The notes below the pieces were generated by a model, which saw nothing but the letters and a program-made list of their open reading frames with translations, had not been told where the DNA came from and ran no database searches. Shown piece by piece: positions 1 through 41,963 of a stretch of DNA of 48,114 nt. Position 1 is the stretch's first letter, and every line of letters starts with the position of its first letter. The stretch lies in IMG/VR virus record IMGVR_UViG_3300045988_031966; one strand, 5' to 3'. The translations under genes and the position numbers were made by a program. This DNA comes from a virus.

Positions 1-55
1 CACTGCGATAATTTTATGGCAGATGCGTATGGATGCAGCACAGAATACGAGGACG
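1..55. repeat. Terminal direct repeat copy 1 (assembly overlap of a circular genome)
   Basis: Bases 1-55 are identical to bases 48060-48114. The gene string continues sensibly across the junction. Confidence 0.9.
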
Positions 56-100
56 GAGAAGAATGCCAAGACTTTGAGAGTAAAAGGTAGGTGGATAAAG

Positions 101-517
101 ATGGAGAAGGTCACAGTATATAGATGCGATTATTGCGGAAAACTCATCGACACCCCGGAAGAATGTGCGAAACACGAACAGCGACACAGGAATGTCGATG
201 GAGCAAATGAAATGTTGAGAAGCGGGGCAACCTTGGAAGATATCAATCAGAGATATGGAATCTGGTACAGTGTCCCAGAACATTTGAAAAATGTAACAAA
301 AGACCATTGCTTTACAATTTCCTATTGGCAGTGTTGTGATAAACCAGCTTATACCATTGAGGGAATCGACATGGATGGACGATTGTATGTATTCGGAATC
401 GGATCATGGAGCGGCGGGTATGGGTGCGAAGTTCCAATAGACAGCACAAATCTGAAAGAGGTACATTCGCCAGACGAATTGTTCGTTGATTCGAGATACG
501 GAAAGGGCAGGTGGTAA
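101..517 (+). CDS. Hypothetical protein with N-terminal C2H2-like zinc-finger motif
   Basis: ORF 23..517. Internal ATG at 101 follows purine-rich aaaaggtaggtgg. Motif C-x2-C-x12-H-x3-H is present (CDYCGKLIDTPEECAKHEQRH). Confidence 0.55.
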   Translation: MEKVTVYRCDYCGKLIDTPEECAKHEQRHRNVDGANEMLRSGATLEDINQRYGIWYSVPEHLKNVTKDHCFTISYWQCCDKPAYTIEGIDMDGRLYVFGIGSWSGGYGCEVPIDSTNLKEVHSPDELFVDSRYGKGRW

Positions 518-519
518 GA

Positions 520-771
520 ATGAGAAATAACAAGAATCCCAAAAACAAAACTGATGGGAAACTTGGGATAAGCAATCTGATGAAACTCATATACGAGATG
601 CCGCTGCCATTAGTGCTTCGGAATATTGAGCAGAACATAGAATTGCTATCCCAAAGAGGTATTCAAATCCGGGATTGGGATAACAAAGACCGGGTGCTGA
701 CACAGGTACGCATTATCGGTGGAAAAGTATATTTCCTTGCGGCAACAGAACCGGAAGCCAAAAAGGATTAG
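520..771 (+). CDS. Hypothetical protein
   Basis: ORF 511..771. First ATG is at 520, just after the upstream stop (515..517). No motif recognised. Confidence 0.45.
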   Translation: MRNNKNPKNKTDGKLGISNLMKLIYEMPLPLVLRNIEQNIELLSQRGIQIRDWDNKDRVLTQVRIIGGKVYFLAATEPEAKKD

Positions 772-786
772 AAAAGAGGAAACAGC

Positions 787-1293
787 ATGGCAGAGAAGAA
801 AGAGGTCGTGGACGAAAAAGCATTGCAGAAGATATGGATCAAAAGCTACCTCGGACAATATTATTGGGCGAGAAATAAAAAAAGACAACTGGAACGAAGG
901 CTGCAGACATTCAGACAAGAGATGATCGGCACAAAGGGGATGCAATATTCCCCAGTGCCGCACAGCCAGACAAACAGTGTCGGCGATGGACCGGCAAGCA
1001 TGGTCATCCGGGCGATGGAGATAGAGGAACAGATCGAATCGCAGAAAGAACAGATGGCAAATGCCATGCTGAATGTGATGAAGATGATGGACTTTCTCCC
1101 AGCAGAATCGACAGAGCGGATTATACTGGAGTACCGACATATTGACTGTTTGAGTTGGAAGCAGATCGCAAGGGAGATGAACTACTCAAGGGCATCGTGT
1201 AACAATTATTACAATGCAGGAATTGAGAAACTGCTGACTTTCAAGAAGGTGCAGAAAATGTTAGAAGAATACTGTGAAATAAATGCCTCCTAA
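787..1293 (+). CDS. Putative late-gene transcriptional activator, sigma-70 region-4-like (ArpU/RinA/DUF1492-type)
   Basis: 168 aa. The C-terminal segment ERIILEYRHIDCLSWKQIAREMNYSRASCNNYYNAGIEKL looks like a sigma region-4 HTH. The location is typical of phage late activators. Confidence 0.5.
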   Translation: MAEKKEVVDEKALQKIWIKSYLGQYYWARNKKRQLERRLQTFRQEMIGTKGMQYSPVPHSQTNSVGDGPASMVIRAMEIEEQIESQKEQMANAMLNVMKMMDFLPAESTERIILEYRHIDCLSWKQIAREMNYSRASCNNYYNAGIEKLLTFKKVQKMLEEYCEINAS

Positions 1294-1316
1294 CCCCACT
1301 GAAGACTTGGAATTGC

Positions 1317-1344
1317 TTGACTTCGGATAGGGGGGGGGTAGAAT
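1317..1344 (+). promoter_or_regulatory. Sigma-70-like promoter with a G9 tract inside the spacer
   Basis: TTGACT (1317..1322), a 16-nt spacer ending in nine G (1330..1338), then TAGAAT (1339..1344). A second candidate TTGTAT-N17-TAGAAT lies at 1344..1372, with palindrome TAACAATtttATTGTTA (1350..1366) in its spacer. Confidence 0.45.
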
Positions 1345-1409
1345 TGTATTAACAATTTTATTGTTATAGAATACCCTCCCCACCGGGGAAACAAAGGAGG
1401 AATGCGGAA

Positions 1410-2171
1410 TTGTTATTTTCTATTTTAGGACGCTTATTTGGGAGAACGGATGAAAACAAAAAGCGAAAGACATTTAGACCTTTGGGAGCACCAATTCCAA
1501 ACGATATCATCTGCGACAGATACAGAGTTAAGGGGAAATATCCGGGAACTGGGCGAATGCGAACCACAGAGATCATTGCATGGGATCAGGCTTCGGATGA
1601 GGAAATCTTAAAGATGGCAGGATTTGTAGAGCCATACGAGATTGAGAGGATTGGACTGGACAGACCTACAGAAAGGCAAGTGGCATATGCGAGAGATTTG
1701 GGAATTCTTGTGCCAAGCGATGCAAGTAAGGACGATGTTAGTATTTTAATATCACGAGCACTGGAACATTACCCAATTCGACAGAATAAAGCACCAAAGA
1801 AAATACTGGAAATTTTAATCAAAAAAATGGGGGTTTACATTCCAACATACGCAGGCGAAAGGGAAATGAATTTCTGGTATCTGATTACATTGAAAACAGC
1901 CGAAGAACGGTATGCTTATTTTGCCATGAAAGTTTACGCCCAAAATACTGGGAAAAATTATCGCTTTATTCACGAAGCGACCGCTGCAGAGCAGGAAAAA
2001 TTTTATGCATTTGCAAGAAAATATAAGGATGATAAATCATTCGTACAATCTTACGAAAGATATAATCAGTTAAGCGAAAGATACAATTATTCGGAGATTA
2101 CGATAACCGGAGAAGTCCGGCGGCAATTAAAGGCGTATAAATTGGCAAGCGATTTTTTCAGCGAAAATTAG
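1410..2171 (+). CDS. Hypothetical protein (accessory/moron-like)
   Basis: 253-aa ORF. TTG start lies 9 nt after aaaggagg (1393..1400). No family recognised. Confidence 0.6.
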   Translation: MLFSILGRLFGRTDENKKRKTFRPLGAPIPNDIICDRYRVKGKYPGTGRMRTTEIIAWDQASDEEILKMAGFVEPYEIERIGLDRPTERQVAYARDLGILVPSDASKDDVSILISRALEHYPIRQNKAPKKILEILIKKMGVYIPTYAGEREMNFWYLITLKTAEERYAYFAMKVYAQNTGKNYRFIHEATAAEQEKFYAFARKYKDDKSFVQSYERYNQLSERYNYSEITITGEVRRQLKAYKLASDFFSEN

Positions 2172-3272: not shown

Positions 3273-4637
3273 ATGGATCAGAAACTGAAAACAGAACGCA
3301 GAAAACTGGCTGACTTAAAGGCAGCCGAATACAATCCACGAAAGGCACTAACCCCGGACGATGCGGAATACCAGAAAATAAAACGTAGCATTGAGGAATT
3401 CGGGTACGTTGATCCTATCATCATAAACGAAGATGGAACAATCATCGGAGGACACCAGAGAACAACGGTACTCATGGACTTAGGGTATGAGGAAGTCGAT
3501 GTCGTTGTGGTGGATCTGGACAAGCAGAGGGAAAAGGCTCTGAACATCGCACTGAATAAAATCACTGGCGAATGGGATGAGTTGAAGTTGAAAGACTTGC
3601 TGCTTGACCTTGACCTCGGAGATTTTGACATATCGCTGACAGGTTTTGAGCAGGACGACCTCACGGAACTGGTGGACAAACTCGCAGTAGAGCCGGAAGC
3701 AGTGGACGATGACTTCGATGCAGAGGAAGCATTGGAGCAGGCAACAGAACCAACTACAAAGCCGGGCGACATTTGGATACTGGGCCGGCACAGACTCATG
3801 TGTGGCGACAGCACTTCGCAGGAAGATATGGCGGTTCTGATGAATGGGGAGATTGCAGACCTTGTTGTCACGGACCCACCATACAATGTCAATTATGGCG
3901 ATAAAGCAGAAATGCTCGACGAGTACCTGCCGGGGAAAGGACACCGGAATATCAATCACATTAAAAACGACAACATGGACAACCAGAGTTTCTATGCGTT
4001 TTTACTGGCAACCTATCAGAGTGCCTATGAATTTATGAGAGCCGGAGCGGCAATCTATGTATTCCATGCAGAGAGCACCGGGCATATTTTCAGACAAGCA
4101 TTCCTTGATGCCGGATTGAAACTCGCCCAGTGTCTGATATGGGAAAAGAACTCTTTTGTGCTCGGCAGACAGGACTACCAGTGGCGACACGAACCATGTC
4201 TGTACGGATGGAAAGAAGGAGCCGCCCATTACTTCATCAATGACCGAACGCAGGATACGGTCATTCTGGAGGATGATATAGATTTCAGTGCCATGAAGAA
4301 AAATGACCTTGTGGCATATCTGGAAGAACTCCGCAGAAAGTATCAGAACCAGACGTCCGTCATTTATGAGAACAAGCCGACAAGGAATGACATCCACCCG
4401 ACCATGAAGCCAGTGGCACTGATTGGAAAACTTGTAACCAATTCCAGTAAGTCCGGGTGGAATGTTCTGGATTTATTCGGAGGCAGCGGCAGCACCCTCA
4501 TGGCCGCAGAGCAACTGGGAAGGACAGCCTTCATCATGGAACTGGATGAACGGTTCTGTGATGTGATTGTAAAGCGGTGGGAAGAATACACCGGGCAGCA
4601 GGCTGTCAGAATCCCGGCATCCGAGGTAGGATTGTAG
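3273..4637 (+). CDS. ParB-like nuclease domain fused to an N6A/N4C DNA methyltransferase
   Basis: N-terminal ParB-type box (YNPR ... IIGGHQR). Catalytic TDPPYNV is followed near the C-terminus by the AdoMet motif LDLFGGSGSTLMAAEQLGR. Confidence 0.85.
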   Translation: MDQKLKTERRKLADLKAAEYNPRKALTPDDAEYQKIKRSIEEFGYVDPIIINEDGTIIGGHQRTTVLMDLGYEEVDVVVVDLDKQREKALNIALNKITGEWDELKLKDLLLDLDLGDFDISLTGFEQDDLTELVDKLAVEPEAVDDDFDAEEALEQATEPTTKPGDIWILGRHRLMCGDSTSQEDMAVLMNGEIADLVVTDPPYNVNYGDKAEMLDEYLPGKGHRNINHIKNDNMDNQSFYAFLLATYQSAYEFMRAGAAIYVFHAESTGHIFRQAFLDAGLKLAQCLIWEKNSFVLGRQDYQWRHEPCLYGWKEGAAHYFINDRTQDTVILEDDIDFSAMKKNDLVAYLEELRRKYQNQTSVIYENKPTRNDIHPTMKPVALIGKLVTNSSKSGWNVLDLFGGSGSTLMAAEQLGRTAFIMELDERFCDVIVKRWEEYTGQQAVRIPASEVGL

Positions 4638-24683: not shown

Positions 24684-25235
24684 ATGGCAGGAGTATTCAG
24701 AGAAGCGGTGCTGACCACCAAAGGAATTGCCCTGCTCGCCAAAGCACAGGCAGGGGAATGCACCATCGATCTCACAAAAGCCGCAGCGGGAAACGGATCG
24801 TATTCCGAAGGCGAAGCACTGATGGGAAGAACCGCACTGAAAGCACAGAAGCAGGAATTTAAACTCAGTGCAGTTACCAGACAGAACAACACTAATGTCT
24901 ATGTAAAAATTGTGATGAGCAATAAGCAGGACACAGGGAATCTGGAACATGGCTACTATGTGAAGGAGGTCGGCATTTTCGCTAACGATCCGGACGAAGG
25001 GGAAATTCTCTATGCAATCGCAGTAGCAATCACGGATCAGTGGGATTATATGCCCGCATACAACAACCTGCTCCCATCTACGATCACGGTCAACTTCCTT
25101 ACAGAGGTATCGAATGCAAGCGAGGTAACCATCGAAGCACCGAACCAGTATTTTTTGTATGACCAAGTGACCGGAGGAAAATACACACTGGGAGTGGAAA
25201 ACGGATTACTTTATTTCGAGGAGGTAGAAGGATAA
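24684..25235 (+). CDS. Tail fibre proximal (baseplate-attachment) protein, tail-collar N-terminal-domain-like
   Basis: 183 aa. N-terminus VLTTKGIALLAKAQAGECTIDLTKAAAGNGSY resembles the N-terminal domain of P2 gpH-type fibres. Its stop overlaps the next start (TAATG). Confidence 0.5.
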   Translation: MAGVFREAVLTTKGIALLAKAQAGECTIDLTKAAAGNGSYSEGEALMGRTALKAQKQEFKLSAVTRQNNTNVYVKIVMSNKQDTGNLEHGYYVKEVGIFANDPDEGEILYAIAVAITDQWDYMPAYNNLLPSTITVNFLTEVSNASEVTIEAPNQYFLYDQVTGGKYTLGVENGLLYFEEVEG

Positions 25236-26497
25236 TGGGAAAGACATTCATCGCAGACAAGGAAACATTGGACAAGGTTTATAACATTCTGGCAGTGGAT
25301 GAAGTGTATGGATTTATCGAACACATGAACATCTTAAGTCCGACAGAGAGGATTGAGTATATCGGAGCAAACAAAGCTTATACTCCATTGACAGTTGACA
25401 AGGTGACCGGAGTGCCAAACTATGGATCATGGGCAAACTTCCCGGTACTTGTTGGTAATAAACCATGGATGGTGCGTTCAGATGGAACACCGGATTACAG
25501 ACTGGATGAAAATGACTACACGAAGAAAGAAGATGGAACTGCCTCCGATGTGGCGAACACAAAATATAATGGCGGTGCATTCGCATGGATTCCGAAGATT
25601 TACAAGCAGGAATATATGCTCGGCGATGACCGTGTCGTTAAATTCTCCATGACAAAGAGAGATGGGTTCGAAGCGGTTGGTTTTATTGACCCGGATAACA
25701 AGGAATTGGAAGGCGTGTGGATTCCAATGTTCTACGGTTCGATTGTGGAAGAAAAAATGAAATCTATTTCCGGGGTGCAGCCTTGCTATAATACAGCAAC
25801 TGCAGCAGAGAAAACAGCTATTGACGCATTCGGAACAAGGGCGAAATTTTTCGGTGGAGCAATCGTCCAGACGCTTACCGACCTTTTAATCATGTTCGGA
25901 AAAAGCACGAACTCGCAGGCGGTATATGGAAGCGGAAATTCAAGTGGATATGATGAAAGTTTGAAGCCTACATACGGAGTAAAACAGAATGCTGTTGTTA
26001 AGGGCGGGCAGTTTTATGGCACAAGCGATGCAAAATCTCTCAATAAGATTTTACATTCCATTGTGCTTGGCAGTTATCAGCAGTGGATGCGTGATCCATA
26101 TACGCTGCTCGTAAATGGAAGATACAAGGTCAGTAAAAACTATGAGTACGACTTGACTGGAGCGAAGTACCAAGATACAGGTATCAGTTTGCCAAAGATT
26201 ATGAATGAAACTGGAGATGAACAAAAAACAGGCGTATTTTACCCACACAAGTACCAGACAGTACCGGGATTTGGAACAGTGCCAGTACATCCATGTAAGG
26301 GAAGTACCACAACTGGCGGCTGTGACGGATTATGGCAGAATGTTGAGATTACGGCTGTCGCCCTTCGGTTCGGCAGATGCGACGATGGTACGAATGATGG
26401 TCTGCGTGCCTTGCATGTGGGCGGTTCCGCTACGGGTGCCTACTGGAGCATCGGTGTCGCCATTCTTCTCCTCCCACCTGTCGGTGTTGCAGCGTAA
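25235..26497 (+). CDS. Distal tail fibre / receptor-binding protein; DGR target gene carrying the VR
   Basis: 420 aa. The last ~48 codons contain the 109-bp VR. All VR/TR differences change codon positions 1-2. Confidence 0.85.
   Translation: MGKTFIADKETLDKVYNILAVDEVYGFIEHMNILSPTERIEYIGANKAYTPLTVDKVTGVPNYGSWANFPVLVGNKPWMVRSDGTPDYRLDENDYTKKEDGTASDVANTKYNGGAFAWIPKIYKQEYMLGDDRVVKFSMTKRDGFEAVGFIDPDNKELEGVWIPMFYGSIVEEKMKSISGVQPCYNTATAAEKTAIDAFGTRAKFFGGAIVQTLTDLLIMFGKSTNSQAVYGSGNSSGYDESLKPTYGVKQNAVVKGGQFYGTSDAKSLNKILHSIVLGSYQQWMRDPYTLLVNGRYKVSKNYEYDLTGAKYQDTGISLPKIMNETGDEQKTGVFYPHKYQTVPGFGTVPVHPCKGSTTTGGCDGLWQNVEITAVALRFGRCDDGTNDGLRALHVGGSATGAYWSIGVAILLLPPVGVAA
26353..26461 (+). repeat. DGR variable repeat (VR)
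   Basis: 109 bp, 96/109 identical to 26597..26705. 12 of the 13 mismatches lie opposite TR adenines. Confidence 0.9.
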
Positions 26498-26596: not shown

Positions 26597-26705
26597 GGCT
26601 GTCGCCCTTCGGTTCGGCAGATGCAACAATGGTACGAATGATGGTCTGCGTTACTTGAATGTGAACAATTCCGCTACGAATGCCAACTGGAACATCGGTG
26701 TCGCC
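26597..26705 (+). repeat. DGR template repeat (TR)
   Basis: Non-coding copy 100 bp after the target stop. It has 25 adenines, many in AAC/AAT codons when read in the VR frame. The RT gene lies 196 bp downstream. Confidence 0.9.
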
Positions 26706-26901: not shown

Positions 26902-28125
26902 ATGAGAAAACAAAAGCAAGACATTCTTCTGCGTAAAGAACCGCAAGGGCATAAAGAGTACAAATATCTGTATCGTGAAATGCTGAAGGATGATGTGATC
27001 CGGAAAGCATATAAGAAGTTACGCAAAGGAAAAACCAAAAGAAAAGAGATACAGTACATCGATGCACATTTTGATGAGGAAGTGCAGAAGATGCACGACA
27101 TGATCTTAAACACCAAGCCAGAGGGCGTGGAAGTACCGCACCCGGAACTGGCATACAAACCCCGGAAAAGAACTCCGAAGATTATCGTGGAACATGGGAA
27201 AAGACGGAAAATCTATATGCCGGAAATTCATGAACAATGGCTACACCACATCATAGTGCTTATTTCAGAGCCGATTATAACAGCCACAGCCTATCCGTAT
27301 TCCTGTGGATCGTTCCCAAAGCGTGGAGCACACTACGGAAAACGACAGATAGAGAGGTGGCTCTTACATGATCCTAAAGGCACAAGGTGTTTTGCCAAAA
27401 TGGATATCCGGCATTTTTATGACAGCATCCGGCTAAAAATTCTTATGATGGAGCTGCGGATTAGAATCAAAGATGAATGGTTTTTATACATTATCGAATT
27501 GTGCCTGCATGGATTTGATAAAGGAATTCCTCTCGGGTTTTATATCAGTCAGTGGTTAGCAAATTATCTGTTAGAGCCATTGGACAGGCTGATCACAGAA
27601 GGACTGGGTCTACCGAAGTTACAGAGATACATGGATGACATCGTCATATTCGCAAGTAACAAGAAAGTCCTTCATGCAGCCATTATAAGAATAAAACAAC
27701 TTCTCGGTCAGCGTTTCAGATTGAAACTGAAGAATAATTACCAAGTGTGCAAATTTTATTTTGTAAAAGGTAAAAGAAGAATCGGCAGGGCGTTGGATTT
27801 TATGGGGTTTGTATTTTACAGAACCAGAACCGTCATCAGAAAGAGCATCATGTTGTCAGCCACCAGACTGGCGGCAAAGATGCATCGAGCAAAAGAAGAA
27901 AATCGTGGATACTTCCACAGACACATCGAAGCCATGCTCTCCTACATGGGATGGTTTACCTGCACAGACACCTATGGATGTTATGAGAGCAGGATAAAAC
28001 CATTCATCAAGGTGGGAAGGCTTAAGAAAATTATATCCAAATTAAAAAGGAGGCAGAACCATGAAGCAGTGGACAGAGGAACGATGTTCCGAAAAACCGC
28101 AGGAGTTACAGCTTATTGCCAGTGA
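26902..28125 (+). CDS. DGR-type reverse transcriptase
   Basis: 407 aa. RT motifs SCGSFPKRG, KMDIRHFYDSI, IPLGFYISQWLANYLL (LGxxxSQ signature), RYMDDIVIF (YxDD) and LDFMGFVF are present. Confidence 0.9.
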   Translation: MRKQKQDILLRKEPQGHKEYKYLYREMLKDDVIRKAYKKLRKGKTKRKEIQYIDAHFDEEVQKMHDMILNTKPEGVEVPHPELAYKPRKRTPKIIVEHGKRRKIYMPEIHEQWLHHIIVLISEPIITATAYPYSCGSFPKRGAHYGKRQIERWLLHDPKGTRCFAKMDIRHFYDSIRLKILMMELRIRIKDEWFLYIIELCLHGFDKGIPLGFYISQWLANYLLEPLDRLITEGLGLPKLQRYMDDIVIFASNKKVLHAAIIRIKQLLGQRFRLKLKNNYQVCKFYFVKGKRRIGRALDFMGFVFYRTRTVIRKSIMLSATRLAAKMHRAKEENRGYFHRHIEAMLSYMGWFTCTDTYGCYESRIKPFIKVGRLKKIISKLKRRQNHEAVDRGTMFRKTAGVTAYCQ

Positions 28126-36055: not shown

Positions 36056-36416
36056 AACAAAGGATTATAAAAAAATTATCGCACAGTTGGATAACCTGCA
36101 GGAACACACCAGAAGCATGGAGCATGACGGAGAGGAAATCTGGAAGCAGGACAGCGAAGCCTTGCAGGAGGCAATGGACATCATCAGTGACTATGAAAAG
36201 GTCGTTGCAAGCCTTAATCGGATGATAGAGCAGTATGAGCGACCGGAGATAACACGGAAGATTGCTGCCGGGGTATATGTCTGCCCCAACTGCGGAAAGC
36301 GTGTGCAGGTCGGGCATAGTTACTGCCACTGGTGCGGAAAGAGAGTCTCATGGGATAGGGAAAGCTACGATACCAGAAAATGGCGGGGAGGAAAGAAACG
36401 ATGCAGCAGGAACTAA
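36048..36416 (+). CDS. Zinc-ribbon protein
   Basis: 122 aa with RBS gaggagg. CPNCGKRVQVGHSYCHWCGKRV gives two CxxC pairs. Confidence 0.6.
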   Translation: MGKTKDYKKIIAQLDNLQEHTRSMEHDGEEIWKQDSEALQEAMDIISDYEKVVASLNRMIEQYERPEITRKIAAGVYVCPNCGKRVQVGHSYCHWCGKRVSWDRESYDTRKWRGGKKRCSRN

Positions 36417-37354
36417 CAATGGGATCGCTTTTCTCCGGAAGCGGTGGCTTTGAACTGGCATCGGCAATCTTCGGAATAGAGCCGAGATGGGCAAGTGAAA
36501 TCGAGCCACTCCCGATGCTGATCACAAAGAAGAACTTCCCGGAAATGCCACATCATGGAGATATACGATACATGAACGGTGGAAAGGTAGAAGCGGTTAC
36601 TGTGATCGCAGGCGGTTCTCCATGCCAAGATATGAGTGTGGCAGGGCAGAGAGCCGGACTGGATGGCAGCCGGAGCAATCTATTCCATGAACAAATCAGA
36701 ATCATAAAGGAGATGAGAGAACATGACAGAAAAGCAGGAAGGACAGGCAAGTATATCAGACCAAGGTTCATGGTCTGGGAAAATGTCCCCGGAGCATTCT
36801 CAAGCAACAAAGGAAAGGACTTCCAAGCAGTCCTGCAGGCAATCGTCAGCGTCACGGACGATACAGCCGCAGTTCCTCTCCCTCCGAAAGGAAAATGGCA
36901 GAGTGCCGGATGTATCATGGGCGACACTTACTCAATCGCTTGGAGAACGCTTGATGCCCAATACTGGGGAGTCCCCCAAAGAAGAAAAAGGATCTACCTT
37001 GTCGCAGATTTTGGAGGCGACACCGCCCCCAAAATATTATTTGAGCGAGAAGGCTTGTCTCGGGATTTTGCGGAGAGCCGAGAAGCGTGGCAAAGAGCTG
37101 CCGGAGATATTAAAGAAGGCACTCATAAAGCAGGCACAGAGAATGTCGAATGTTACGACATCAGCGACAGACGCAGAGTAGCGGACAAGAGTGAGGTGTC
37201 GCCTACGCTGACCACGAAGATGGGGACCGGCGGGAACAATGTGCCGATTGTCATAGAAACCCACGCACAAGATGCACGGTGGGGAATATCAGAGGATAAT
37301 ATCGTGCAAACCCTCGCAAGCAATATGGGCACAGGGGGGGCAATGTACCGATGA
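36401..37354 (+). CDS. DNA (cytosine-5) methyltransferase, N-terminal fragment (motifs I-VIII)
   Basis: LFSGSGGFELA (motif I), GGSPCQDMSVAG (IV), FMVWENVPG (VI) and PQRRKRIYLVA (VIII). The frame ends 12 nt after the G7 run at 37334..37340. Confidence 0.85.
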   Translation: MQQELTMGSLFSGSGGFELASAIFGIEPRWASEIEPLPMLITKKNFPEMPHHGDIRYMNGGKVEAVTVIAGGSPCQDMSVAGQRAGLDGSRSNLFHEQIRIIKEMREHDRKAGRTGKYIRPRFMVWENVPGAFSSNKGKDFQAVLQAIVSVTDDTAAVPLPPKGKWQSAGCIMGDTYSIAWRTLDAQYWGVPQRRKRIYLVADFGGDTAPKILFEREGLSRDFAESREAWQRAAGDIKEGTHKAGTENVECYDISDRRRVADKSEVSPTLTTKMGTGGNNVPIVIETHAQDARWGISEDNIVQTLASNMGTGGAMYR

Positions 37355-38145
37355 TCATGAATGAAGCAAGGTCAGTAGACCTAAGAAATCAGCGATTGGG
37401 AGATGACAAAGCAGAAACCCTGCATGGGTGCGGACATGGCAGTTCCGTGGCGACTGTCATAGAACCGACAGCGTTCCACATTACGCAGGACCCGACAGCA
37501 TTCGAGGGGAAGTCCCCGTGTCTGACGCAGGGCAATCCAAAGACAGGGCAGGCAACTATCGGAGTGGCAATTCCAATCGCAGACAAAGCCACCAGATACA
37601 AGGGCGGCGGTAACACCAGAAACAATGACGGATCAGCCAATGGACTGGGAGTCGGAGAACCGGGAGCACCTGCCAACACTCTCACAGCAGCCGACCGTCA
37701 TGCAGTCGCATATGCAATGCAGGCATTCGGACAGTATAAAGAATCAGAAATAGCCAGTGCGATAAAGGCTCGTGATTTTAAGGACAGCACAGACCTTATA
37801 GTGGAATTGGAATATATCATACGCAGGCTGACTCCGTTGGAATGCTGCCGCCTGCAGGGTTTCCCGGATGATTGGACTGAGGACATCGCCATCACAGAAC
37901 CAAAGGCATCGGTCATCAGAGAATGGATGATTGCCTGGGCAGAATGGTGGCGGCTGATCGGGAAAGACAGTGGAATCCAACTGCCAAAGGATGCCAAGCA
38001 GGTAGAACGATGGCTCGCTGATCCGGCAAGCGACTCAGGTCTTTATAAAATGTGGGGAAATGGAATCGCACTTCCATGTGCCATGTTTGTGATGGAAGGC
38101 ATCGCAGAAGTACTGAAGGGGGAAAATTCCAATGAATCAGAATAA
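37351..38145 (+). CDS. DNA (cytosine-5) methyltransferase, C-terminal fragment (TRD part plus motifs IX-X)
   Basis: RRLTPLECCRLQGFPDDW (IX) and YKMWGNGIALPCAMFV (X). The frame becomes continuous with 36401..37354 if the G7 run gains one G. Confidence 0.85.
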   Translation: MIMNEARSVDLRNQRLGDDKAETLHGCGHGSSVATVIEPTAFHITQDPTAFEGKSPCLTQGNPKTGQATIGVAIPIADKATRYKGGGNTRNNDGSANGLGVGEPGAPANTLTAADRHAVAYAMQAFGQYKESEIASAIKARDFKDSTDLIVELEYIIRRLTPLECCRLQGFPDDWTEDIAITEPKASVIREWMIAWAEWWRLIGKDSGIQLPKDAKQVERWLADPASDSGLYKMWGNGIALPCAMFVMEGIAEVLKGENSNESE

Positions 38146-38249: not shown

Positions 38250-39611
38250 ATGCAAAGCAGCAAAAACACAGTACATAAAGGCTTCGGACTGCTCTTCGAA
38301 ATGGGATGCGGAAAGACACTGACTGCAATCATGATAGCAGGAACAGCTTACCAGATGGGGAAAGTGGAAAAGGTACTGGTCGTAGCACCAACCTCCGTCT
38401 GCTCCGTATGGCCCAAAGATTTCGCAGAATTCGCAGACTTTAAAGCTAACATAAAAGTGCTGCTCGGAGATAAGAACCGCAGGATCAAGATGTTAAACGA
38501 CCTCGACAATTTTCCGTTCAAGGCACTAAAGGTGGCTGTGATCAACTACGAATCCACATGGCGGGAGGGTGTCTTTGAAGCACTCTACGATTGGGATGCG
38601 GATATGATCATCTGCGATGAAAGCCAGAGAATCAAGACGCACGATGCAGAGCAGTCCAAGGCAATGCACAAATTGGGAGATCGGGCAAGGTACAAGCTGA
38701 TACTTTCCGGGACCCCAGTACAGAACAATGCCATAGATTTATACAGTCAGTACCGCTTCCTTGACCCGACTATCTTCGGAACGAACTTCTATCAGTTCCG
38801 AAACAGGTATGCAATCATGGGCGGTTTTAACAGACACCAGATTGTGGGATACAAGGATATGGATCAGTTAATCCAAAAAGAACATTCCATCGCATACCGA
38901 GTAACCAAAGAGGAGGCACTCGATCTTCCGGAACAGACATTCCTGCAGCGATACATCACTATGTCGTCCAAGGAAAAAGGAATCTATGACCGCATCAAGC
39001 GCGAGAGTTTCGCAGAACTGGAGAATGGCGGTCAGATTACTGCCACAACCGTACTGACAAAACTCCTGCGGCTACAGCAATTCACTGGCGGTTTCTTGGT
39101 GGCAGACGGAGAGGAAAAGCCGGAACTGGTCAGCAAAGGAAAACTGAACGCACTGGAAGAAATCATAGACGATTATGTGATTGGGGCAGACAAGAAACTG
39201 GTAATCTTCGCCCGGTTCAGACCGGAGATAGGCATCATCGGGAAAATGCTCGCAAAGAAGAAATTGCGGTATGGTGCAATTTATGGAGATGTGAAACTGG
39301 AGGATCGTGGCGATATCGTCAAGGATTTTCAGACCAACCCGGAAACAAAGGTATTCCTCGCACAGATCGATACCGCAGGACTGGGAATCACGCTGACCGC
39401 AGCCGATACCTGCGTGTATTACTCGGTCAATTTCAACTATGCAGCATACAGCCAGAGCCTTGCACGAATACACAGAATCGGTCAGAAGAACACCTGCACC
39501 TATATCCATCTGATTACAGAGGGAACGATAGATGAGGTGGTGCTGAAAGCACTGGCGAAAAAAGAGGACTTGGCGAAAACGGTCGTGGATACATGGAGGG
39601 ATTATTTCTAA
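38250..39611 (+). CDS. SNF2-family helicase/ATPase
   Basis: ATG lies 6 nt after aggagg. EMGCGKT (motif I), ICDESQRIK (II), LSGTPVQN (III) and GLGITLTAADT...QSLARIHRIGQ (V/VI). Confidence 0.85.
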   Translation: MQSSKNTVHKGFGLLFEMGCGKTLTAIMIAGTAYQMGKVEKVLVVAPTSVCSVWPKDFAEFADFKANIKVLLGDKNRRIKMLNDLDNFPFKALKVAVINYESTWREGVFEALYDWDADMIICDESQRIKTHDAEQSKAMHKLGDRARYKLILSGTPVQNNAIDLYSQYRFLDPTIFGTNFYQFRNRYAIMGGFNRHQIVGYKDMDQLIQKEHSIAYRVTKEEALDLPEQTFLQRYITMSSKEKGIYDRIKRESFAELENGGQITATTVLTKLLRLQQFTGGFLVADGEEKPELVSKGKLNALEEIIDDYVIGADKKLVIFARFRPEIGIIGKMLAKKKLRYGAIYGDVKLEDRGDIVKDFQTNPETKVFLAQIDTAGLGITLTAADTCVYYSVNFNYAAYSQSLARIHRIGQKNTCTYIHLITEGTIDEVVLKALAKKEDLAKTVVDTWRDYF

Positions 39612-40177
39612 TGGCAAAGGTTGATATTTTTACCACGGAAGAAAAATACGACATCCTCTATACAGATCCACCGTGGAAGCAGGGCAGGGGCGGTAAGAAA
39701 GCAGCAAGACCAAACTCCACCGGAACGACCGTTCCATACGACACCATGGACATCCCCGGAATCATGGAGATACATAACTTTGTGACAGGAAATCTGATGA
39801 ACGAAAAGCACAATGTGTTCATGTGGACGATAGACAAGTACCTGCCGCAGACAGAGGAAATCATGAGCCTTTTGGGGTATCAGCTCCATGCAAGGCTGAT
39901 ATGGGATAAAGGCAACGGACCGGCACCCGCCTATACGGTGCGGTTCGCACACGAATACCTGCTGTGGTTTTTTAAGAAGGGAAATATCATCCTCCCGGAT
40001 AAGGACAAGCGTGGAGCGTTCTCTACGGTGCTTCGGGAGAACAGCCGTAGATGCCACAGTAAAAAGCCGGAATGTGCCTATCGGATGTTAGAAACATTCT
40101 TCCCACAGGCAAAGAAACTGGAACTCTTCGCAAGGACGGAGCGTGACGGTTGGGACCAGTGGGGGAACGAATTATAA
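39611..40177 (+). CDS. MT-A70-family N6-adenine DNA methyltransferase
   Basis: ATG overlaps the SNF2 stop. Catalytic motif ILYTDPPWK (DPPW). About 188 aa. Confidence 0.8.
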   Translation: MAKVDIFTTEEKYDILYTDPPWKQGRGGKKAARPNSTGTTVPYDTMDIPGIMEIHNFVTGNLMNEKHNVFMWTIDKYLPQTEEIMSLLGYQLHARLIWDKGNGPAPAYTVRFAHEYLLWFFKKGNIILPDKDKRGAFSTVLRENSRRCHSKKPECAYRMLETFFPQAKKLELFARTERDGWDQWGNEL

Positions 40178-41912: not shown

Positions 41913-41963
41913 AGGTGGCAGGGGCGGGGAGCACCCCCCCCATTAGAAAAGGAGGCACACAGC

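Follow-up and report, generated by a model that had tools for sequence, protein, structure and literature searches.

Genomic setting of the locus

The window (the whole 48,114-nt stretch of viral DNA analysed here, IMG/VR record IMGVR_UViG_3300045988_031966) is a temperate phage genome of ~48 kb with genes almost wholly on the plus strand. The phage encodes a reverse transcriptase, an endolysin and an rve-type integrase, and its early block comprises DUF7575, a C5 methyltransferase, an SNF2 helicase, an MT-A70 methyltransferase and a primase. Its relatives are prophages in bacterial contigs, where they lie beside rpsB and tsf. The closest isolate match is a prophage of Dorea acetigenes (88% amino-acid identity), and other matches come from Lachnospiraceae and Oscillospiraceae. 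The phage is a temperate phage of gut Lachnospiraceae; a megablast search with the methyltransferase gene returned no close relative among GenBank phages.

Several features of the window lie outside the locus of interest. Three classes of DNA methyltransferase are present, since a ParB-N6/N4 enzyme (3273..4637) and an MT-A70 enzyme (39593..40177) accompany the C5 enzyme listed in Table 1. The phage also carries a diversity-generating retroelement, whose two 109-nt repeats are 88% identical, differing almost exclusively where the second copy has adenines; a tail protein gene (25235..26497, phrog_5302) ends in the variable copy. A run of nine guanines (1330..1338) fills the 16-nt spacer of a promoter-like element, TTGACT-N16-TAGAAT (1317..1344), located 5′ of an ORF at 1410..2171. 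One relative has G8 at this site, with other sequence upstream of it, and the run itself forms the start of another contig. The G9 may be a second variable tract acting via promoter spacing. An intergenic run of eight cytosines (41934..41941) precedes the ribosome-binding site of a DUF7768 gene and is C7 in three of five close relatives; it could pair with GGGGCGGGG immediately 5′ of it.

Table 1. Features of the window considered in the text, in window coordinates.
Feature	Position	Strand	Description
C5 DNA methyltransferase gene, interrupted	36401..38145	+	G8 version would encode 581 aa; PF00145 1.5e-39 on the restored protein
N-terminal ORF (ORF1), G7 allele	36380/36401..37354	+	317 aa counted from 36401
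C-terminal ORF (ORF2), G7 allele	37351..38145	+	264 aa, motifs IX and X
Overlapping ORF, +1 frame within the methyltransferase gene	36723..37181	+	152 aa; SD-like AAGGAG at 36707..36712
First module-motif copy, TLTTKMGTGGNNVP	37205..37246	+	Never homopolymeric: GGC GGG/GGT AAC
Second motif copy, TLASNMGTGG-tract-NVPMIMNE	37310..37365	+	Near-identical to first copy; contains the tract
Poly-G tract	37334..37340	+	G7 here, in frame at G8; codes for the Gly-Gly-Gly loop in the second TL..MGTGG(G/N)NVP module
Diversity-generating retroelement	VR 26353..26461; TR 26597..26705; reverse transcriptase 26902..28125		

An interrupted C5 methyltransferase gene

The original prediction held that a run of seven guanines splits a C5 methyltransferase into two ORFs, and both the coordinates and the sequence are as it described them (Table 1). 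ORF1 carries motifs I (36428), IV (PCQ, 36614), VI (ENV, 36779) and VIII (QRRKR, 36977), followed by module 1 of the variable region and the beginning of module 2, and it matches the N-terminal part of PF00145 (E 1.8e-32). ORF2 contains motif IX (37822) and the GNG of motif X (38056) and matches the C-terminal part of the same family (E 2.2e-6), so that the motifs are distributed between the two ORFs as had been predicted. ORF1 terminates at a TGA (37352..37354) 12 nt beyond the tract, which shares the sequence ATGA with the start codon of ORF2, and the G-run sits 10 nt 5′ of this ATG. One additional G produces a single 581-aa protein (...LASNMGTGGGNVPMIMNEARSV...; ...TLASNMGTGGGNVPMIMNE...); this step of the prediction was also confirmed, and such proteins occur in many assemblies at 96-99% identity.

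With G8, motifs I (FxGxG), IV (PCQ), VI (ENV), VIII (QxRxR), IX (RxLTxxExxRLQGFP) and X (GNG) follow one another in the order of a C5 DNA methyltransferase. Motifs I-IV, VIII and IX of the restored protein can be aligned to M.HhaI, and motifs I, IV, VIII and IX also to M.HaeIII. An AlphaFold2 model of the full-length enzyme, built from a shallow alignment of 23 sequences, has a pLDDT of 29.

The region between motifs VIII and IX spans ~270 aa, compared with ~100 aa in M.HhaI. It consists of repeated TL...G-rich modules, with modular insertions and deletions between relatives. In these respects the enzyme is similar to the multispecific C5 methyltransferases of Bacillus temperate phages (SPR, phi3T and rho11s), which are likewise phage-borne and combine a single catalytic core with an enlarged variable region. 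The likeness concerns the general layout, in which module repeats are gained or lost between relatives. The SPR, phi3T and rho11s enzymes are not known to be phase variable. Other arrangements occur among related genes: in L033 (3001..4700), P0245, P0255, L043 and L088, motifs I-II follow motif X or the frame runs on into a next copy, layouts that look like circularly permuted or tandem methyltransferases.

The tract lies inside a duplicated motif, as anticipated from the near-copy upstream. In the second copy, ATGATCATGAATGA supplies stop codons in both alternative frames together with two in-frame ATG codons for the C-terminal part, and any out-of-frame tract state meets a stop within ~10 nt of an in-frame ATG. 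Translation of out-of-frame alleles ends 27-36 nt past the start of the motif, leaving an N-terminal part of 317-323 aa. The heptamer GGGGGGG occurs six times in the window, where 6.9 occurrences are expected from shuffled sequences. As the G7 run by itself is at chance level, the weight of the argument rests on its position at the frame break and on comparison with relatives. GGG makes up 16% of glycine codons in the phage, and the tract holds the only GGG-GGG among 72 Gly-Gly pairs.

A conserved overlapping reading frame

An additional ORF in the +1 frame overlaps the methyltransferase gene. It reads ...LSQILEATPPPKYYLSEKACLGILRRAEKRGKELPEILKKALIKQ..., and its conserved part (36999..37125) corresponds to ...LSQILE..KYYLSEKACLGILRRAEKRGKELP... 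The peptide is found in 186 of 189 related loci, in 184 of which it occupies the +1 frame with respect to motif VIII. At the median it is 69% identical, against 50% for the annotated frame in the same DNA, which is found in only 118 loci. An analysis of 54-55 representatives below 90% identity indicates that the wobble shifts from frame-0 position 3, seen at motif VIII, to frame-0 position 1, equivalent to position 3 of the +1 frame, over ~35 codons. Seven codons, read as LVADFGG in frame 0 and LSQILE in the +1 frame, are conserved at all three positions. Restricting the set to the 30 representatives in which motifs VIII and IX share a frame, as they do in the window, gives the same shift in wobble phase.

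The sense +1 frame is open in all 55 representatives, frame 0 in 42, the +2 frame in two and the same-phase antisense frame in six; an antisense ORF was rejected as the source of the +1 periodicity on these counts. In 43 of the 55, the +1 stop is followed at a distance of 1-4 codons by an ATG (36723 in the window), and this ATG is preceded by an AAGGAG that encodes the K-E of the frame-0 KEMR motif. AlphaFold2 predicts a confident helix-loop-helix for the +1 peptide (pLDDT 81-91 over the conserved part). Searches of Pfam, PHROGs and PDB sequences, and Foldseek against the PDB, returned no relatives. The peptide may resemble the start of a Dcm-type variable region.

In relatives from Angelakisella, Lawsonibacter and Owariibacterium, frame 0 ends just past motif VIII and the +1 frame goes on to encode the recognition modules together with motifs IX and X, an alpha/beta layout like that of M.AquI. 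The existence of these alpha/beta relatives, together with the conserved +1 ORF, raises the chance, still a low one, that out-of-frame alleles of the gene retain residual multi-chain activity.

Tract length among relatives

Full-length relatives of 581 aa belong to the lineage of the window and share 95-99% identity with the restored protein (~35 distinct sequences on ~49 contigs). Others are 628 aa long at 87-91% identity, or 578 aa long at 76%. The full-length relatives read MGTGGGNVP, equivalent to G8, with the exception of one MGTGGNVP (G5) and two MGTGGGGNVP (G11).

For a census independent of reading frame, a DNA pattern allowing G5 to G15 between conserved flanks was used. Hits came from 10 viral contigs and from 25 metagenome contigs, which amount to 34 distinct ones; species-representative genomes gave no match. 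Four contigs carry G6, ten G7, nine the in-frame G8, seven G9 and four G10. The check proposed with the original prediction, a tabulation of run lengths in related genomes, thus yields G6 to G10 with 9 of 34 in frame. Contigs grouped by a flank identity of at least 98.5% over 800 nt show tract lengths from 7 to 10, from 6 to 10 and, in the group of the window itself, from 7 to 8. An identical 264-aa C-terminal fragment occurs on ten contigs from ten samples, behind G6 in three (one at 39x coverage), G7 in three, G9 in two and G10 in one. One contig with this fragment, L210, has a transposase inserted at the tract; over ~1..1500 of this contig, the end of a DDE transposase abuts the poly-G tract and the N-terminal half of the methyltransferase is replaced.

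Out-of-frame C-terminal fragments form protein clusters of 48, 82 and 337 members, single members being found on up to 122 contigs. The 48-member cluster, which is spread over many contigs, includes the 264-aa product of the window, itself called in identical form on further contigs. Taken with the census, the sizes of these clusters imply that out-of-frame alleles are at least as common as in-frame ones in public data. The in-frame share of alleles is ~26-35%, and a value near one third is expected without selection on frame; this share fits an intermittently selected contingency gene and a drifting hotspot equally. Three or four contigs terminate within 80-180 nt of the tract, a weak hint of mixed populations.

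Condition of the gene and recurrence of tracts

With every tract set to G8, 22 of the 30 complete genes can be read without interruption. The other eight comprise L094, L099 and L114, which are broken only at additional poly-G tracts, the error-ridden assembly L096, L088 with its differing gene layout, and L101, L105 and L111, which carry other small indels. In the 628-aa lineage, a second tract (GPGG) lies 476 nt downstream and ranges from G6 to G10. Additional poly-G tracts occur elsewhere in related genes, and several differ in length between near-identical contigs; isolate and MAG relatives have up to three tracts, one of which is G13. For instance, the second tract is seen in L001 (4336..4343), L002, L003, L006 and L019, more tracts in L094 and L099/L114, and further ones in L120 (3934, 4080 and 4451) and L126 (3823, G13).

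Runs of at least seven G are 11-fold denser in the methyltransferase genes than in their flanks, with 137 G-runs against one C-run on the coding strand. Part of this excess must stem from the Gly-rich motifs, which alone favour G-runs on the coding strand. The homopolymer is retained in lineages that differ at flanking synonymous sites, and more distant relatives encode the same glycines as GGA GGA GGA, GGT GGT GGT or GGC GGC GGC. The pattern of intact genes and recurrent tracts speaks for mutable tracts being retained and against simple decay.

A putative phase-variable switch

The locus is probably (at a probability of roughly 0.7) a slipped-strand contingency tract that toggles a full-length phage methyltransferase on and off, and the window would represent an off allele. 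As is characteristic of contingency loci, the tract lies within an ORF and sets its frame (G8 in; G6, G7, G9 and G10 out), and its length varies among near-identical genomes far faster than point substitutions accumulate. Phase variation of homopolymers by slipped-strand mispairing is an established process. By this route, mispairing at replication would add or remove guanines in a tract within the variable region with which this orphan cytosine-5 DNA methyltransferase appears to recognise its target. With G8, and also with G5 or G11, motifs I-VIII and IX-X would be joined in one 581-aa chain, the predicted ON state. With G6, G7, G9 or G10, the catalytic N-terminal part would be cut off from motifs IX and X, the predicted OFF state and that of the window with its G7. 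As motifs IX and X are parted from the catalytic portion, OFF alleles are expected not to methylate, though a split form may keep some residual activity.

Such a switch would hedge between two hazards, as methylated progeny would resist Type II restriction while unmethylated progeny would avoid methylation-dependent restriction and toxicity to the host. Orphan methyltransferases of phages are reported to act in anti-restriction by protecting the DNA that is exported, and in lysogens they can be silent or toxic (PMC12707154).

A slipped-strand ON/OFF switch was the leading reading of the original prediction, and the comparative evidence supports it: G8 relatives are common, G6 to G10 coexist among near-identical relatives, neighbouring genes are free of frameshifts, and most out-of-frame alleles are otherwise intact. 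Neither of the two outcomes that the prediction had named as counting against it was observed. Its adaptive value we infer.

Alternative explanations

It is highly improbable that the G7 of the window is a sequencing or assembly error in a genome that truly has G8, a reading that the original prediction had also entertained. Homopolymers do attract errors, coverage is 2-3x or indel errors are plain in several related contigs, and some census contigs are of low coverage or error-ridden (L093, L096 and L099); these three were discounted because their neighbouring genes are frameshifted. Against an error, the split product is called on independent contigs, and a 100% identical stretch of 20.7 kb in another assembly likewise has G7. 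Out-of-frame alleles occur in hundreds of independent contigs, some of them at 12-39x coverage and some two bases away from G8, which does not fit an error of reading or assembly. Other homopolymers in coding sequence are stable: in relatives sharing 85% or more identity with the window, A7 and T7 runs are invariant and the tract is the only frameshifting indel within coding sequence. Contigs without any frameshift in 1100-2834 aa of neighbouring genes still range from G6 (L092) through G7 (L083, L086, L102, L108, L115), G8 and G9 (L107, L111) to G10 (L081, L090). Assembly error as a general explanation was rejected on this neighbour-gene control and the high-coverage out-of-frame alleles. The main rival to the switch is a drifting, non-adaptive mutational hotspot in a gene that is dispensable in lysogens, with G7 as early pseudogene decay. 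This is unlikely, yet it deserves more weight than the other alternatives: the in-frame fraction is near the neutral third, and some alleles have extra lesions (L105, L111, L101) or an IS insertion at the tract (L210). Decay of this kind is at odds with the intact and conserved remainder of the gene in most out-of-frame alleles, with the four different tract lengths that accompany an identical 264-aa C-terminal fragment, and with tracts that persist across diverged lineages and recur at no fewer than four positions despite the synonymous GGA, GGT and GGC versions in relatives.

Two further alternatives grant the out-of-frame alleles a product. In the one with least in its favour, -1 ribosomal frameshifting or transcriptional slippage on the G-run would yield full-length protein from the G7 template. 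GGG GGG permits re-pairing in the P site, but no single length is kept among relatives, opposite directions of shift would have to be invoked for G6, G7, G9 and G10, and in-frame G8 is common. There is no X XXY YYZ heptamer, the 100 nt downstream fold no better than shuffled sequences (z -0.85), and an Rfam search gave no match. A programmed frameshift or transcriptional slippage site, also named in the original prediction, was rejected on the range of lengths from 6 to 10, the frequency of in-frame alleles and the lack of a stimulatory structure or Rfam match. It is rather doubtful, though less so, that out-of-frame alleles are non-null, in that the N-terminal fragment and a C-terminal fragment re-initiated at the ATGA, with the G-run serving as an SD-like element, could form an active enzyme of two chains, whose specificity might differ. 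A natural split in the variable region, with overlapping ORFs, is known from M.AquI, an arrangement to which the G7 split would correspond (PMC3404938, PMC2836561). Fragments of four monomeric C5 methyltransferases can complement each other, with ~4% activity in the case of M.SssI (PMC3404938). The G7 allele shows a layout of the M.AquI type in its ATGA overlap and nearby G-run, some relatives are naturally encoded as two overlapping ORFs with the split just after motif VIII, every out-of-frame stop lies close to an in-frame ATG, and the in-frame fraction looks unselected. On the other side, the break falls inside a recognition module and not between folded units. The Met codons belong to a motif that is present in tract-less relatives; since the first Met is found there, Met-Ile-Met after the tract was rejected as a selected re-initiation site. 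M.EcoHK31I offers a parallel for the +1 ORF, as its second polypeptide (beta) is encoded in another frame inside the alpha gene (PMC3404938, PMC2836561). The phage gene departs from both of these enzymes in that its split is produced by a tract of variable length and its +1 ORF codes for a helical module and not for motif IX. A speculative extension, about as doubtful as the two-chain enzyme, is that the tract toggles between the fused chain and an assembly of N-terminal fragment, re-initiated C-terminal fragment and +1 peptide, with reduced or altered specificity.

Comparison with known contingency loci

The preferred reading, an ON/OFF switch by slipped-strand mispairing, has counterparts in bacterial phasevarions. 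In these systems (Type III mod and Type I hsd genes with simple-sequence repeats), the tract is likewise located within a methyltransferase ORF, and slipped-strand changes in its length set the frame ON or OFF. Phasevarions differ in being chromosomal Type I or III systems of pathogens, whereas the gene described here encodes a phage-borne orphan C5 enzyme from gut Firmicutes. A phasevarion also exerts a regulon effect on host genes; none is known or implied for this locus, which is described by comparison of genomes.

Contingency loci also occur in phages. In phage T2, a run of A in the DNA-modification gene agt switches sensitivity between two restriction systems, according to a preprint, and poly-G tracts have been noted, without study, in the methylase of phage BPP-1 and in Campylobacter phages (PMC12633550). 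Together with the poly-G of Fletchervirus receptor-binding genes, these are cases in which a homopolymer in a phage gene gives rise to mixed progeny (PMC12633550). Like the locus here, agt is a DNA-modification gene, and its loss trades one restriction system for another (PMC12633550). BPP-1 and the phage of the window both carry a diversity-generating retroelement. The present case differs from these loci in its temperate Lachnospiraceae phage, its C5 methyltransferase and the differing positions of tracts in different lineages. It would add a gut temperate phage, supported by rich population evidence, to the known simple-sequence contingency tracts in DNA-modification genes.

Biological significance

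Phage-encoded methyltransferases decide whether phage DNA survives host restriction. If the switch is real, temperate phages of the gut would release mixtures of methylated and unmethylated progeny. We know of bet-hedging by mixed progeny demonstrated so far only for T-even phages in the laboratory. Genes of this kind are liable to be mis-annotated as pseudogenes or as two genes, and the signal is present in hundreds of public human-gut assemblies. Linking phages to hosts by their methylomes would then give answers that depend on the sample. Should the three-frame assembly also exist, the phage would diversify which sites are methylated, and not only whether they are.
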